From a virus (lineage: Duplodnaviria; Heunggongvirae; Uroviricota; Caudoviricetes), in the IMG/VR virus record IMGVR_UViG_2724679140_000015: a DNA stretch of 35,494 nt, one strand, 5' to 3'. A program made the translations under genes and the position numbers. Each line of letters begins with the position of its first letter. The stretch's first letter is position 1. The notes under the pieces are model-generated. The model did not search any database. It was not told the origin of the DNA and saw only the letters and a program-made list of their open reading frames with translations. Below are positions 4,718 to 33,362 of the stretch, one piece after another.

Positions 4718-5868
4718 TTTTTCTTCTCCTTAATCACCGTCGATGTACTGCCATCCGGGTGATAAACCGTGAGTTTCTGAGTTTTTTGTTTTTTCCCTCT
4801 TGTGACTGGCCCCCGTGCCACTTCCAGCTCTGTGGTGTAGCCGCTGTTACGCTCAAACGCATGGCGGGCAGTAATTATCAGCCATGGACCGGATAACTGT
4901 CCAAAGCCCACCAGTTCAATTTTGTTGCCTGCTGTCAGTTGAGGCGTTCCCGTCAGCGTCAGGGAGCCGTTCTGCTGGTATTCGTTATATCTGGCCAGTG
5001 CTGAATCCGCTTTAATCCGGGCACTGTCCGGGTCGCTGACACGGCTGTTAACTTTAAGTGAGTCAGCGCTGGTAACCTTACCACCTTTGAGCTTTTTGTC
5101 GCTTTCACGGGTACCACCATCAGCTTCGTAGACGATCAGTTTTTTACTGCTGCTTTTCTGGTGTTTTACCTTTGCAGATTTATAGACCCGGTTGATGGTG
5201 TCACGCAGGGAAAAGCGGGCCACATCCTGCGGTTTTAACTGCCTGACCGGCTCCTGACTGCGCAGTGTGGCCAGATGAGAAAAAATCAGCTGGTCACTGA
5301 CAACTTTCACTGCATAACCATACTCGCTGGCCAGCCGGCGCAGAAAACCCACGTCGGTTTCAGCATACTGGGTCACCCGGTCGATTTTGATGGACTCAAT
5401 GCTGCCCACCAGTTTCAGCCGGTGCTTTCTGGCAATCCGCCCCGCAACAGCCGCCAGCGTGGTGTTCTCAAAACCACGGCTGGATTTAGTCCGCAGAGCA
5501 CTGTTAACCGAGGTGGCCACCCCACGGATAGCGACAACGGACGCGGGCGAACTCACTTCGATCTCGTCTATTGAAAATGTACCGCAGGACAGCAGTTTCT
5601 CGCCCTGATAGCCCATTTTCAGCGTCAGAGTATCACCCTTACCCGGATACCACTTATCCAGCCAGCGACCATCGGTATCGTCCAGCTCCACCTCGATGGT
5701 ATCGGACTCATTTTTGATGTTATCGCTCCAGGTCACACGGGTAACATAAGGCGCGATATCTGAGGTGATGTTTTTCTGCAGATACCACAGAGTGAATACC
5801 GGTGTCAGCACATCACTGACGCCGGTTAACGCTGATGCGCCTTGCGAAGTGCTCTTTATCTCAGCCAT
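4714..5868 (-). CDS. tail protein, P2 gpD / Mu P-like
   Basis: 384-aa ORF after the X-like gene. Confidence 0.55.
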   Translation of the reverse strand: MAEIKSTSQGASALTGVSDVLTPVFTLWYLQKNITSDIAPYVTRVTWSDNIKNESDTIEVELDDTDGRWLDKWYPGKGDTLTLKMGYQGEKLLSCGTFSIDEIEVSSPASVVAIRGVATSVNSALRTKSSRGFENTTLAAVAGRIARKHRLKLVGSIESIKIDRVTQYAETDVGFLRRLASEYGYAVKVVSDQLIFSHLATLRSQEPVRQLKPQDVARFSLRDTINRVYKSAKVKHQKSSSKKLIVYEADGGTRESDKKLKGGKVTSADSLKVNSRVSDPDSARIKADSALARYNEYQQNGSLTLTGTPQLTAGNKIELVGFGQLSGPWLIITARHAFERNSGYTTELEVARGPVTRGKKQKTQKLTVYHPDGSTSTVIKEKKK

Positions 5869-6071
5869 GGGGCAATATCCTCTTCTGTACGGGCATCTTC
5901 AGCCTCAATAACCGGGATCAGTAACAACAACCCGGAGGGCAGCACTGGCGTAATGGCCACGTGCGGATTGGCGGCAATAATCCGGGGATAGCCCAACGGG
6001 TCACCGTAGTACTGCCATGCCAGCGAATCCCAGCGCTCTCCGTCACAGGTAATATGTTCAAGAAACATCAC
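5856..6071 (-). CDS. tail protein X-like (LysM-like small tail protein)
   Basis: 71-aa ORF with a GxRWD...YYG...II.ANP pattern typical of P2 gpX-like proteins. Confidence 0.5.
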   Translation of the reverse strand: MMFLEHITCDGERWDSLAWQYYGDPLGYPRIIAANPHVAITPVLPSGLLLLIPVIEAEDARTEEDIAPWLR

Positions 6072-6952
6072 ACACTCCTCGTCAGTATTCTGGCGGCCAT
6101 TGCACTTAATCCCGGAGACATGCGGTTGAATGCGGTGCCGGCAGCGTTAAGCTGCCCGGAAACGGTATCCAGAGCACCTGCAATATTTCTTTTGTCCACA
6201 CCACTCAGCGCCGACTGCGCCTGCTGTACACACATGACTGCTTCGCTGGCTGTTCTGGCCAGACTGATGGCATCGGGCATGGATTCAGAGAGAGCATTAA
6301 ATGCCGGAATACTTTTCCCCAGAGATCCGGATATATTACCCAGTCCGCTCATCAGTCCCGGCACACGGGTCAGCGCGACAACGGGGTTACCTTTCATTTT
6401 CTGCGCCACCCGAACGGCACTGATGGTAGTCTGGAGTACAGACTGCGCCTGTTTCGCATAGTTGACACCGTTACGGACGAACTGAGCCACCCCGGAAGGC
6501 GATGGAACAGCACCAGATACGGCCCCGGCTCCGGGAACCTGCCTGCGTATTGCCGGCGGTTGCAGAGGATTTTTGGGGTCACCGGTGTATTCCCGGAGAG
6601 ACACGGTGGCACTGACAGCCAGCACGTTACCGGTGCTGTCTGTCTGCTCGCTGGTTGCGGTCACATCGGTAATCACGAACCAGCCGCGATAGTCACCGTT
6701 GCCGAAAACCAGCGCCAGTGCCTGATGGGCCTTCATGGCTGTTCGCAGTCTCGCCAGCTCCACGTCGGGCACACAATAATGCTGATGGAAGATCAGACTT
6801 ATCTGGATTTCGTCCAGCCTGTCGCCGACGAACTGCAGGCCGGGTTTACCCTCGATGCGGGCATGCTCCGCATAATCGACGCCGAACGTGGCCTCGAAGC
6901 CGTCCCAGTAGGTAATCAGTTCAAACTCAATATCACCCAGTACGGCAAACAT
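6068..6952 (-). CDS. DNA circularization protein N-like (tail protein)
   Basis: 294-aa ORF immediately downstream of the tape measure gene, as in Mu. Confidence 0.45.
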   Translation of the reverse strand: MFAVLGDIEFELITYWDGFEATFGVDYAEHARIEGKPGLQFVGDRLDEIQISLIFHQHYCVPDVELARLRTAMKAHQALALVFGNGDYRGWFVITDVTATSEQTDSTGNVLAVSATVSLREYTGDPKNPLQPPAIRRQVPGAGAVSGAVPSPSGVAQFVRNGVNYAKQAQSVLQTTISAVRVAQKMKGNPVVALTRVPGLMSGLGNISGSLGKSIPAFNALSESMPDAISLARTASEAVMCVQQAQSALSGVDKRNIAGALDTVSGQLNAAGTAFNRMSPGLSAMAARILTRSV

Positions 6953-28332: not shown

Positions 28333-30102
28333 ATGAATGCTGCCCTGACTGAACGACTGGTTTATGTCGCCCGCGCGGCACGTGACGCGGGGCATGGTAA
28401 ACGCGGTGCAATATACGACGCTGCCTGTGCTGAACTTGGCATGTCCCGCGCCACTCTGCTGCGCAGGCTGAAGGAGGTCTCTGTGACTGATAAACGCAAA
28501 AAACGCGCCGATGCCGGGCGCAGCGCCCTGACCCGCGACGAAGCCGCGCTGATATCTGCCACACTGCGTGAGGCCACCCGCAAGAACGGTAAGCGTCTTT
28601 ATTCCATCGCGGATGCAGTGGAAACCCTGCGGGCTAACGGCTTTATCTCCGCAGGCAGAACAGATGAAACCACCGGTGAGTTTTTCCCGTTGTCCGAAGA
28701 TGCCATCAGTCGTGCCCTGCGTAACTATGGCCTGCACCCGGAACAACTGGATGCCCCTGCACCGCATACCGAAGTGGCCAGTCTGCACCCCAATCATGTC
28801 TGGCAGATTGACGCCTCACTATGCACGCTTTACTACCTGAGCAATGGACATAAAGGGCTGCAGGTGATGGACAGCGCGAAATTCTACAAGAACAAGCCCG
28901 CTAACCTTGCCCGTATCGCCAGTGACCGCGTGTGGAGTTACGAGATTACCGACCATGCCAGCGGCTGGATTTACGTTGAGTATGTGACGGGTGCGGAATC
29001 CGGTGAGAACCTGTGTTCTGTGCTTATCAACGCCATGCAGGAGCGCGGTGGCGCAGACGTGCTGCACGGCGTGCCGAAAATACTCTATCTCGACCCCGGT
29101 TCGGCGAACACCGCGGGTATGACGAAAAACATGTGCCGCTCACTGGGCATCGACCTGATAGCGCACAGGCCGCATAACGCCCGCGCCACCGGACAGGTGG
29201 AAAAGGCGCGTGACATTATCGAACGCAAGCTGGAGCCGGGTCTGAAGTTCCGGCCGGTTCACAGTCTGGAAGAACTCAACGCGCTGGCCGCGAAATGGCG
29301 CAGCCACTTTAACGCCACGGCTGTTCACAGCCGCCACGGTAAAACCCGCACGGATATCTGGCTGAAGATTACTGCTGAGCAGCTGAAAAAAGCGCCTTCC
29401 GTTGAGGTATGTCGTGAACTGGCTGTGGCGGCACCAGAACTCCGCAAAGTCACGCCAAAACTTCGTGTCTCGTTCCGGGGCACTGAATTTGACGTATCAA
29501 CGGTACCGGGCGTACTGGTCGGTGAAAAACTGATGATTACCCGTAACCCGTGGCGCAGCGATGTGGCACAGGTGGTTCTGACCGGTGAGGACGGCCACGA
29601 GACGTTCTTCCTGGTCGAAGAGGTCAGAAAGAACGAGTTTGGCTTTGCTGAAGGCGCGGCGGTATTTGGCGAAAGTTACAAAGCCCTGCCGGAAACCCCG
29701 GCGCAGATGGCGGCAAAAGAAACCGAAGCGCTGGTCACCGGTACAGACAACGCCGCAGATGCAGCTGCCGCACGCAAGGCGAAGGCACTGCCGTTCGGCG
29801 GACGACTTGACCCGTATAAACATATTGATGACGCCACACTTCCGGCCTATATGCCGAAGCGTGGTCAGGCCTCTGACGTACGCGGGCCGCGCACTGAACA
29901 ACGTCCCATGACTCATGTGGAGGCCGCGAAAGCCCTGCGCGATAAGTTCAGCGCCAACGGCCTTACCTGGACGCCGGAACATTACCGCCAGTTAACGGCA
30001 CAGTACCCGGACGGCGTACCGGAAGCCGCACTGGATGAAGTCATGGCCACGCTGACCACGCCGGTCCGCAGCAGTGTTATCAGCATTGTTAACGGCAACT
30101 GA
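28333..30102 (+). CDS. DDE transposase A (retroviral integrase-fold)
   Basis: 589-aa ORF with N-terminal HTH-like region and catalytic-core-like WQIDAS...ITDHASG motifs; followed by the ATPase gene. Confidence 0.75.
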   Translation: MNAALTERLVYVARAARDAGHGKRGAIYDAACAELGMSRATLLRRLKEVSVTDKRKKRADAGRSALTRDEAALISATLREATRKNGKRLYSIADAVETLRANGFISAGRTDETTGEFFPLSEDAISRALRNYGLHPEQLDAPAPHTEVASLHPNHVWQIDASLCTLYYLSNGHKGLQVMDSAKFYKNKPANLARIASDRVWSYEITDHASGWIYVEYVTGAESGENLCSVLINAMQERGGADVLHGVPKILYLDPGSANTAGMTKNMCRSLGIDLIAHRPHNARATGQVEKARDIIERKLEPGLKFRPVHSLEELNALAAKWRSHFNATAVHSRHGKTRTDIWLKITAEQLKKAPSVEVCRELAVAAPELRKVTPKLRVSFRGTEFDVSTVPGVLVGEKLMITRNPWRSDVAQVVLTGEDGHETFFLVEEVRKNEFGFAEGAAVFGESYKALPETPAQMAAKETEALVTGTDNAADAAAARKAKALPFGGRLDPYKHIDDATLPAYMPKRGQASDVRGPRTEQRPMTHVEAAKALRDKFSANGLTWTPEHYRQLTAQYPDGVPEAALDEVMATLTTPVRSSVISIVNGN

Positions 30103-31281: not shown

Positions 31282-31551
31282 ATGAAATCCACCACAGGTA
31301 TCAACCAGCAAATCAGCAAAGTGCTGTCAGCCATTATGGCGCTTAAGGCGACGAACACGGATGTACAAAGCATCACCATCAGGGGTAACAAACCTGTCAT
31401 TCGCGTTTCCAGGAGTGCGCATTGCATGCGCATGCTTGAGCAGGGGAAAGCCAGTTATCTGTATACCGGTCATGACCACAGGGGACATTTCCGTCAGGGC
31501 GTTTTCGAACTGCACGGCTGTCGCGTCGTGTGGCCGGAATCTCTGTGGTAA
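31282..31551 (+). CDS. hypothetical early protein
   Basis: 89-aa ORF starting 2 nt after the B stop. Confidence 0.35.
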   Translation: MKSTTGINQQISKVLSAIMALKATNTDVQSITIRGNKPVIRVSRSAHCMRMLEQGKASYLYTGHDHRGHFRQGVFELHGCRVVWPESLW

Positions 31552-31578
31552 TCAGCACAACAGGAGGAGTCATAAAAT

Positions 31579-32109
31579 ATGGCAAAAAGTACAAAAGGGG
31601 CAAAACGTATCAAGGCCGCAGCAGCACTCTGGGTGCCGGGGACACGTGAAGAGGTCATTGAGGGAATCAGACTGCTCGGTGACGCACAACGTGAACTGGT
31701 CAGGGCTGAAACAGAAATGAATGACGCCATTGGCGATATCACCGCTCGTTATGCCCCGCTCACCGAGAGCCTGAAAAAACGCATGGCCGAACTGCAGTCC
31801 GGTATCCAGACATGGTGTGAGGCGCACCGTGACGAACTGACCGGCAACGGGAAGGTGAAGTTCGCTAACCTCACCACTGGCGAGGTGCAGTGGCGAAACC
31901 GTCCACCGTCAGTCAGCATTCGCGGGGCGGATAATGTTATTGAACTACTGAGACGTCTGGGGCTTGAGCGCTTTATTCGTGTAAAAGAGGAAATAAATAA
32001 AGACGCTATCCTGAATGAAAAAGAGGCTGTGAAAAATATTCCCGGTATTACCATAAAAAGCGATATTGAGGATTTTTCAATAATTCCTTTTGAACAGGAT
32101 GTGCAGTAA
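31579..32109 (+). CDS. gam: host-nuclease inhibitor Gam (Ku-like DNA end-binding protein)
   Basis: Near-colinear similarity to Mu Gam as I recall it (MAK...KRIKAAAA, ETEMNDAI, RPPSVSIRG, IEDFSIIPFEQ). Confidence 0.8.
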   Translation: MAKSTKGAKRIKAAAALWVPGTREEVIEGIRLLGDAQRELVRAETEMNDAIGDITARYAPLTESLKKRMAELQSGIQTWCEAHRDELTGNGKVKFANLTTGEVQWRNRPPSVSIRGADNVIELLRRLGLERFIRVKEEINKDAILNEKEAVKNIPGITIKSDIEDFSIIPFEQDVQ

Positions 32110-32206
32110 ACACACCACGTTAATTATTTAATAAAAACATTTTCTTTTTTATTCCGGCGTCAGCGCCGTGGGCTTCTGCACGCCGGAAACAGAGGAGAAT
32201 TAAATC

Positions 32207-32401
32207 ATGATATTTAAATGTATTCAGTGCGAGAGGGATATAACAGCCCTGCGTTTTCACAGCGCCATCGCCGTGATGTCCGGTAAGTACCACGTACCTG
32301 CAGTACGTGTCACCCTGGTCTGTCCGTACTGCAGCCAGCATTTTTCGGCGGACGTGCCCGTCATGGAATTCTCCCGCCCTGACAGGGAGGACGCGCAATG
32401 A
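32207..32401 (+). CDS. small zinc-ribbon-like protein
   Basis: CxxC ... CPYC pairs in 64 aa; AGAGGAG RBS. Confidence 0.35.
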   Translation: MIFKCIQCERDITALRFHSAIAVMSGKYHVPAVRVTLVCPYCSQHFSADVPVMEFSRPDREDAQ

Positions 32402-32670
32402 TTACCCCACAGGAAGCACGACAGCGCACCCGACTCCTTGTTGAACACTATGTCAACGAGTGTGAATGCCGCGACCTCACTGATGTGAAGCACGTCCTGA
32501 CGGCGCTAATCAGCATGGCCGCTCAGGCCATTGTGGCGACCAACGGAAAGGAGGCTGCCCTGCAGGTACTGGTGAACACACTCACCCATACGGCACAGCA
32601 CGAAGTGCCGTACCGGATGGAAACCACTGCAGAAGGCAACCTGAACATCACCGTCGATCGGAAGCACTGA
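32398..32670 (+). CDS. hypothetical protein
   Basis: 90-aa ORF translationally coupled to neighbours. Confidence 0.3.
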   Translation: MITPQEARQRTRLLVEHYVNECECRDLTDVKHVLTALISMAAQAIVATNGKEAALQVLVNTLTHTAQHEVPYRMETTAEGNLNITVDRKH

Positions 32671-32679
32671 GGGCGCGGC

Positions 32680-32982
32680 ATGACACGTAACACCATACGC
32701 ACACGCACCGCCCTCTATCGTCTGGCCCTGCAGCGTTTCGGGCCGGATGCACAGTCACTGAAACTGACAGAAGAGGCCGCTGAACTGGCAGCCTGTGCTG
32801 CCCGCAACCTGAACGGACAGGGCAGCGAAAGTGACCTCGCGGCAGAACTGGCAGACGTGGAAATCATGACAGAGCAGTTGCGCCTTCAGGGGATGGACCG
32901 ACTGATTGACTTCCACAAACAGAAAAAACTGGAACGCCTTGCCGCACGGCTGGGCGTCACATACACCGGAGAAATCATATGA
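32680..32982 (+). CDS. possible MazG-like nucleotide pyrophosphohydrolase
   Basis: EEAAELA ... ELADVEIM pattern resembles the EExxE...DxxD signature of small all-alpha NTP pyrophosphatases; weak. Confidence 0.35.
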   Translation: MTRNTIRTRTALYRLALQRFGPDAQSLKLTEEAAELAACAARNLNGQGSESDLAAELADVEIMTEQLRLQGMDRLIDFHKQKKLERLAARLGVTYTGEII

Positions 32983-33362
32983 ACTGCACTGAACAGACGC
33001 CACAACTGACGCCTGAAGATGTTGCACAGCGTATTCGGGTACTGGAAGACGAAAACGAATACCTGCGCAAGAGATTTGAAGAGGTGGACCTGTACTTCGG
33101 GCGCAATCTGGTTGTCATGAAAGCTGCAGTGATTGAGTGGCGGGCCACCGGTGATGCCAGGAACGGCATGGCGTGGATTTACAACACCCTGTGTGGGCCG
33201 GGCGAACTGCCGCCGCAAGAGGAGAAAGAGGCACAGGAATACTTCAACAGGGAAACTGAAGTTATCGACAGAAAACTGGCTGCCCTGTACCACTGGTTCA
33301 GGAAATACCACAGGACACACGCCGCACCTGACCAGACCACCACAGGAGGTACCGGTGACTGA
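32979..33362 (+). CDS. hypothetical protein
   Basis: 127-aa ORF, coiled-coil-like N-terminus. Confidence 0.3.
   Translation: MNCTEQTPQLTPEDVAQRIRVLEDENEYLRKRFEEVDLYFGRNLVVMKAAVIEWRATGDARNGMAWIYNTLCGPGELPPQEEKEAQEYFNRETEVIDRKLAALYHWFRKYHRTHAAPDQTTTGGTGD

Follow-up and report, generated by a model that had tools for sequence, protein, structure and literature searches.

A Gam-linked early gene module with a divergent MazG-like protein and a conserved post-gam hairpin in a BcepMu-like prophage of Escherichia coli

The IMG/VR virus record IMGVR_UViG_2724679140_000015 is a stretch of 35,494 nucleotides (the window) that comprises almost an entire BcepMu-like transposable prophage. Here we describe the segment 31579-32982, in which four closely packed, co-directional genes lie on the plus strand. 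The locus is in the middle of the early operon of this BcepMu-like (Bcepmuvirus) E. coli prophage, where the gene order runs from a DDE transposase (28333-30102) through an AAA+ ExeA/MuB-like ATPase and an 89-amino-acid (aa) protein to Gam, a zinc-ribbon-like protein, a 90-aa protein and a MazG-like protein, followed by a variable 127-aa gene, a small membrane protein, a DUF2786/DUF7168 protein, GemA and Mor. Identity to Escherichia phage PhiKM (genus Bcepmuvirus) is 95.4% over the region, which is found in 636 of 5426 complete E. coli genomes, mostly at 90-99% identity. The features of the segment are as follows.

31579-32109, plus strand: gam, 176 aa, PF07352 / phrog_491
32152-32188, plus strand: GC-rich hairpin in the 97-nt spacer between gam and the 64-aa gene
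32207-32401, plus strand: 64-aa Cys4 zinc-ribbon-like protein (Zn64), phrog_3401
32398-32670, plus strand: 90-aa orphan protein (p90), phrog_3691
32680-32982, plus strand: 100-aa single-domain MazG-like protein, phrog_2245, with an acidic motif

An earlier reading of the window, made from the letters alone (the sequence-only reading), had marked this span as an early accessory cluster. Its limits are exact, 31579 being the Gam start and 32982 the stop of the 100-aa open reading frame (ORF); the Gam, 64-aa and 100-aa genes that it named are present, while the intervening 90-aa gene had been left out. Ribosome-binding sequences precede gam (AGGAGG), the 64-aa gene (GAGGAG) and the 100-aa gene (GAGGG). 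The 90-aa gene overlaps the 64-aa gene by ATGA, the 100-aa gene begins 10 nt past the 90-aa gene, and the next ORF (127 aa) again overlaps the 100-aa gene by ATGA. Selection was assessed by comparing each gene with its orthologues in a Proteus mirabilis prophage (L006) and in a second contig (L005). Substitutions cluster at the third positions of codons, and the ratio of nonsynonymous to synonymous substitution rates (dN/dS) is ∼0.1-0.26 (dS being saturated in two comparisons). The third-position bias and the low dN/dS together mark the four ORFs as genuine plus-strand genes, and the substitution pattern indicates that purifying selection acts on all four.

On sequence grounds the 176-aa protein is certainly a member of the Mu Gam family, as the sequence-only reading had proposed. 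It matches the Pfam model Phage_Mu_Gam (PF07352) at 5.6e-41 and 140.4 bits (cut-off 28.3), with residues 23-169 covering model positions 1-148 of 149, and phrog_491 at 1.7e-73; it is 62% identical to Mu gp10 Gam over 169 aa (E 4.7e-66), and its product name in RefSeq is 'host-nuclease inhibitor Gam family protein'. Mu Gam is a Ku-like dimer that caps linear DNA ends and shields them from RecBCD. The prophage protein has the same length, is likewise encoded past the transposase and ATPase genes of the early operon, and by analogy would bind linear phage DNA ends as a Ku-like dimer and protect them against RecBCD. Unlike Mu, the host element is BcepMu-like and its early operon is inverted relative to the late genes, and some relatives (L005-type elements) have a DUF3164 protein in the gam slot. 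In Mu, the matching stretch of the early operon is the semi-essential region between A/B and gemA/mor. Its only homologues of the genes here are Gam and GemA, and no homologue of the 64-aa, 90-aa or 100-aa proteins was found in Mu.

The 100-aa protein carries two acidic motifs, E31-E32-x-x-E35 and E56-L-A-D59, separated by 20 residues (between E35 and E56), which falls within the 12-28 residues of MazG motif spacing. The predicted metal ligands are E31, E32 and E35 (codons 32770-32784) together with E56 and D59 (32845-32856), and a basic helix with K80, K83 and R86 lies downstream. The EExxE element of the sequence-only reading is thus present, while the second motif is ExxD (ELAD) and not the DxxD that it had given. 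The strongest profile match is to phrog_2245 (nucleoside triphosphate pyrophosphohydrolase; 1.6e-33), with a further match to phrog_4856 (1e-3). An exhaustive profile search with the family returned 11,033 cluster representatives at E ≤ 1e-3. Among 140 representatives, E31 is kept in 139, E32 in 136, E35 in 136, E56 in 138 and D59 in 138, and Q25, Q66, K83 and R86 are likewise kept across this set. Of 72 relatives, 17 match Pfam MazG (PF03819; best E 2.2e-5), two match MazG-like and two match PRA-PH. With a broader profile, MazG-family chains make up five of nine weak Protein Data Bank (PDB) matches (5ie9, 2q73, 2q5z, 1vmg and 2gta), and a fold search of BFVD gives template modelling (TM) scores of 0.73-0.80 to viral proteins named nucleoside triphosphate (NTP) pyrophosphohydrolase. 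The AlphaFold (AF2) model of the protein is confident, with a predicted local distance difference test (pLDDT) score of 91. A 101-aa allele in RefSeq (WP_000197789.1) is named "nucleoside triphosphate pyrophosphohydrolase family protein", and the MazG-like gene is present in 635 of 5426 complete E. coli genomes.

Several results weigh against a MazG-type assignment. The 100-aa protein matches no PF03819, PF12643, PF01503 or NCBIfam model at E ≤ 0.1, and sequence searches of the PDB with it (phmmer and profile) are not significant, the top profile match being an unrelated STAS-domain protein (E 0.0023). Foldseek against the PDB places YpjD and Bacillus MazG at the top, at E values of only 0.3-0.8. 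An hhalign comparison of the family profile with the single E. coli MazG sequence is likewise not significant (E 0.13, probability 0.4%); its alignment pairs E31/E32/E35 and E56/D59 with YEEIDE and EEEMGD of the E. coli MazG C-terminal domain. The AF2 monomer consists of three helices, one of them 42 residues long, and not of a compact four-helix bundle, and position 55 is alanine where 110 of 140 relatives have glutamate. Weighing these results, we conclude that the 100-aa protein belongs to the all-alpha NTP pyrophosphohydrolase (NTP-PPase) superfamily, as a divergent, single-domain and phage-centred member whose catalytic motif is intact. The MazG-like call of the sequence-only reading therefore gains from phrog_2245, the motif conservation, the fold searches and the RefSeq name, and lacks a direct Pfam or NCBIfam match; the search with hidden Markov models that it had suggested, for a significant match to a MazG family, succeeds only through PHROGs and structure.

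The nearest characterised kinds are SSO3215 of Saccharolobus (1vmg), iMazG from a Vibrio integron (2q5z/2q73), Bacillus MazG (5ie9), YpjD (2gta) and the PRA-PH domain of HisE. Unlike these enzymes, the 100-aa protein is too divergent for the curated Pfam and NCBIfam models, its predicted monomer merges the last two helices, and its family is phage-centred (phrog_2245). E. coli MazG (3cra), a tandem-domain NTP-PPase encoded in the relA-mazEF operon, has two domains where the phage protein has one, and there is no mazEF context at this locus; its two-domain architecture is echoed in the family by the tandem-domain fusions P0081 and P0099. No recognisable partner domains were found in the longer family members.

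Zn64 has cysteines in two pairs, C5xxC8 and C39xxC42, the second knuckle being C-P-x-C. It matches phrog_3401 (function unknown) at 1.7e-40. The pattern C-x2-C-x29-30-C-P-x-C (all four cysteines and P40) is identical in 10 of 10 aligned sequences, of which the most distant is ∼31% identical, and none of the four cysteines is lost in intact orthologues at 52-56% identity; dN/dS is ∼0.1. Close homologues are confined to Enterobacterales prophages (many of the database entries being frameshifted), and divergent homologues stand directly after gam in several other lineages of Mu-like prophages. No Pfam family reaches threshold; the sub-threshold Pfam matches are Sgf11, zf_C2H2_6, DUF7560, PyrI_C, YnfU and Zn_ribbon_10, with no Com family among them. 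The prediction of a Cys4 zinc ribbon is well supported, because the four cysteines are identical across divergent homologues. Of the zinc-ribbon candidate in the sequence-only reading, the four conserved cysteines thus hold, and a match to a curated zinc-ribbon family does not. Mu Com is a 62-aa zinc-finger translational activator of mom that binds the mom leader. Zn64 resembles it as a small Cys4 zinc protein of a Mu-type phage, with a structured leader that appears to mask a Shine-Dalgarno sequence, and differs in cysteine spacing and in lying in the early region, not at mom. In the PhiKM record (L001 5921-6142, ∼32120-32341 of the window), a hypothetical minus-strand ORF is drawn over the 64-aa gene; this is likely a mis-annotation, as RefSeq, conservation and codon-position statistics back the plus-strand gene.

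The p90 protein is an optional orphan insert in the module. It matches phrog_3691 (function unknown) at 9.8e-54, and its family is narrow, all full-length homologues being at least 65% identical and nearly all named E. coli. The AF2 model has three helices and a beta-hairpin at low confidence (pLDDT 64.9), and dN/dS is ∼0.11. The gene is present in three of 17 related loci.

These 17 loci, all carrying the zinc-ribbon gene, formed the neighbourhood comparison. Zn64 is followed directly by the MazG-like gene in 12 of them, the stop and start often overlapping, and in three by p90 and then the MazG-like gene. Locus L005 has tandem MazG-like genes (5688-5984 and 6001-6303), lacks p90 and carries DUF3164 instead of Gam. 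In L011, L014 and L022, Zn64 is followed by two unrelated small genes and the MazG-like gene is missing; in L066 and L067, the MazG-like gene stands directly after gam without Zn64. Some distant family members (P0075, P0084, P0156, P0175, P0188 and P0195) have a MazG-like domain fused at its N or C terminus to a CxxC...CxxC segment, and these Cys-rich segments show no detectable homology to Zn64. Two close Zn64::MazG-like fusions (P0031 and P0041) were considered as true fusions and rejected, since they look like frameshift artefacts, and the Rosetta-stone argument is therefore rejected in its strong form. The genes often travel together, though not obligatorily, and are modular accessory cargo and not an obligate complex.

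The 97-nt spacer after gam contains the hairpin TTCCGGCGTCAGCGCCGTGGGCTTCTGCACGCCGGAA (32152-32188), flanked upstream by a U-tract (32140-32150) and downstream by GAAACAG and then the Shine-Dalgarno sequence GAGGAG (32192-32197). The predicted RNA fold has an energy of -29.5 kcal/mol (z = -4.1), and further base pairs, between the upstream U-tract and the Shine-Dalgarno region that serves the 64-aa gene, lengthen it. Among 14 sequences from several Enterobacterales the hairpin hardly varies, even though the flanking coding sequence is saturated at synonymous sites. In this alignment 98.6% of cells are paired, and one pair has changed in a compensatory manner (C:G to U:A); in four further pairs only one partner changes, giving G-U wobbles, and this suggests that the hairpin acts as plus-strand RNA. 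Covariation in the aligned sequences lends the hairpin modest support. In phage Mu (L008 6368-6398) a GC-rich hairpin occupies the corresponding position, in the interval from gam to gp11, and shares the flanks ATTTAAT...TTCTTTTAATTA and GAAACAG as well as a GCGTCAG core, and in other lineages (L061/L064 and L075) the hairpin stands ahead of unrelated genes. When given a mixed alignment of Mu and BcepMu-type sequences, RNAalifold missed the long stem owing to misalignment of its arms. No Rfam family matches the hairpin, no sigma-70 promoter was found nearby, and we found no paper describing a gam-proximal stem-loop in Mu. An intrinsic terminator was also considered and was ruled out by a terminator check. 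The hairpin, common to Mu and this prophage, may have a regulatory part in the Mu early operon; it could serve in translational masking, as an element of mRNA processing or stability, or as a protein-binding site.

Taken as a whole, the locus is probably a segment of an early operon that combines Gam with a MazG-type (deoxy)nucleoside triphosphate pyrophosphohydrolase, most likely for sanitation of the deoxynucleoside triphosphate (dNTP) pool, the small genes being modular cargo. In the proposed mechanism, the 100-aa protein would assemble as a dimer or tetramer of helical bundles, in which E31, E32 and E35 with E56 and D59 would hold Mg2+ and the K80/K83/R86 helix would hold the phosphates; the alpha-beta bond of a (deoxy)nucleoside triphosphate would then be cleaved to nucleoside monophosphate and pyrophosphate. 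The MazG-like protein would be co-expressed with the transposase and the replication-transposition functions, and by analogy with other MazG enzymes may, while replicative transposition proceeds, sanitise or reshape the dNTP pool (dUTP and damaged or modified dNTPs). We favour dNTP sanitation because canonical or aberrant dNTPs are the substrates of most single-domain MazG enzymes characterised so far, and because the family appears to reach haloarchaeal-type sequences (P0156 and P0175 look haloarchaeal by sequence); in haloarchaea, signalling by guanosine tetra- and pentaphosphate ((p)ppGpp) is generally absent. A further reason is that the cyanophage MazG prefers dGTP and dCTP and leaves (p)ppGpp untouched (PMC6850273). 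To be set against this role is that it is best described as a prior taken over from other MazG enzymes, and not as evidence from the locus.

The main rival to dNTP-pool sanitation is depletion of (p)ppGpp in the manner of Atd1, in which the MazG-like protein would be a counter-defence enzyme that soon after induction hydrolyses (p)ppGpp, or some other alarm or chain-terminator molecule derived from a nucleotide, and would block the stringent response or toxin-mediated abortive infection instead of cleaning dNTPs. This is the depletion of nucleotide signals that the sequence-only reading had raised, with Atd1 as its one published precedent and the cyanophage MazG as a counter-example. The phage protein Atd1, whose catalytic domain is MazG-like, dephosphorylates ppGpp (Km ∼50 uM) and saves cells from the toxicity of TIR-STING and retron-TIR (bioRxiv 10.1101/2022.06.09.495361). 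The gene also lies in an early accessory region beside Gam, an inhibitor of a host nuclease, and its slot is variable, like an anti-defence island. However, tblastn with the 100-aa protein or the E. coli MazG C-domain gave no Pectobacterium phage among the matches listed, the six proteins scanned (31282-33362) include no Pfam nucleotidyltransferase (the neighbour that led to Atd1), and PADLOC matched only the 127-aa ORF, with a model named DpdH, and not the 100-aa protein. The cyanophage enzyme, too, had long been assumed to degrade (p)ppGpp and does not degrade it (PMC6850273), and the apparent extension of the 100-aa family to haloarchaeal-looking sequences likewise speaks against a (p)ppGpp substrate. 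Atd1 (of Pectobacterium phage PcCB7V) and the MazG of cyanophage S-PM2 are alike in being phage-encoded MazG catalytic domains that manipulate host nucleotide chemistry; their preferences are measured and opposite (ppGpp against dGTP and dCTP). On balance we regard an Atd1-type role as unlikely, though with more in its favour than the alternatives that follow.

The hairpin, Zn64 and the MazG-like gene might instead form one regulated unit, in which Zn64 binds the hairpin as Mu Com binds the mom leader, and in which binding would open the sequestered Shine-Dalgarno sequence for translation of Zn64 and the pyrophosphatase; Zn64 might otherwise be a subunit of the enzyme. Such a unit would fit a hairpin that is far better conserved than the flanking genes, the pairing of the U-tract with the Shine-Dalgarno sequence in the predicted fold, the direct succession of Zn64 and the MazG-like gene in 12 of 17 loci, often with overlap, and the fused CxxC...CxxC segments of distant MazG-like members. 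We nevertheless hold it to be very unlikely: Zn64 occurs without the MazG-like gene (L011, L014 and L022) and the MazG-like gene without Zn64 (L066 and L067), the hairpin precedes unrelated genes in Mu and in L061/L064, the close fusions P0031 and P0041 look like frameshift artefacts, the Cys-rich segments of the distant members are not detectably homologous to Zn64, and Zn64 reaches the threshold of no Pfam family, the Com-type zinc finger included. Phage dUTPases derepress pathogenicity islands through partner binding, and the 100-aa protein could in the same way be a non-enzymatic helical bundle of MazG-like shape that acts by binding a partner, its acidic motif, for all its conservation in the family, being a relic. 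The absence of a curated MazG match, the insignificant PDB sequence and Foldseek matches, the unusual three-helix topology of the model and the alanine at position 55 in place of the common glutamate would agree with this, the least probable of the readings, to which we give hardly any credence.

The finding of the sequence-only reading is correct but ordinary: Gam is known, the MazG-like gene, common in E. coli, already has its label in PHROGs and RefSeq, and Zn64 and p90 are small phage proteins of an uncharacterised kind. Mildly new are the broad association of gam with the zinc ribbon and the conserved post-gam hairpin shared with Mu. The prophage type is present in ∼12% of complete E. coli genomes; many clinical and commensal strains would therefore express the prophage's early accessory genes on induction. 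If the MazG-like protein is only a dNTP house-cleaner, it is one more uncharacterised subfamily of a well-known superfamily. A bolder combination, which we think quite improbable, would make the Gam-linked early cassettes a counter-defence slot, in which the MazG-like protein destroys an immune or alarm nucleotide ((p)ppGpp, or a chain-terminating or modified NTP) and is gated by a hairpin that masks the Shine-Dalgarno sequence and is read by Zn64, a Com-like translational switch. Were degradation of alarmones or immune nucleotides true, it would extend the single precedent of Atd1 to a phage family of more than 11,000 sequence clusters, and the disputed question of "phage MazG versus stringent response" would become testable in a tractable E. 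coli/Mu-like system.

Downstream of the module, the 127-aa ORF (32979-33362, plus strand) matches the PADLOC model PDLC02890, labelled 'DpdH', at E 9.9e-90 over the full 127 model positions; it also matches C-terminal parts of phrog_18739 and phrog_250, and is hypothetical in RefSeq. We found nothing useful in the literature on the PADLOC DpdH. This ORF is a variable cassette: five copies among the matches listed carry it, and it is absent from PhiKM and from those listed E. coli copies in which query coverage is just 81%. Upstream, the 89-aa protein (31282-31551, plus strand) is encoded directly behind the ATPase gene, in the position of kil in Mu. Its match to phrog_2041 (unknown function) is strong and that to phrog_6381 'Kil septation inhibitor' weak (E 0.009); in one RefSeq record it bears the name 'HI_1482 family protein'. 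In two E. coli genomes (L002 7449-8201 and L003 6865-7773), the prophage end past mor meets truncated host genes, emrA in one and a DUF2300 gene in the other, as would fit near-random transposition of the Mu type into different sites of the chromosome.

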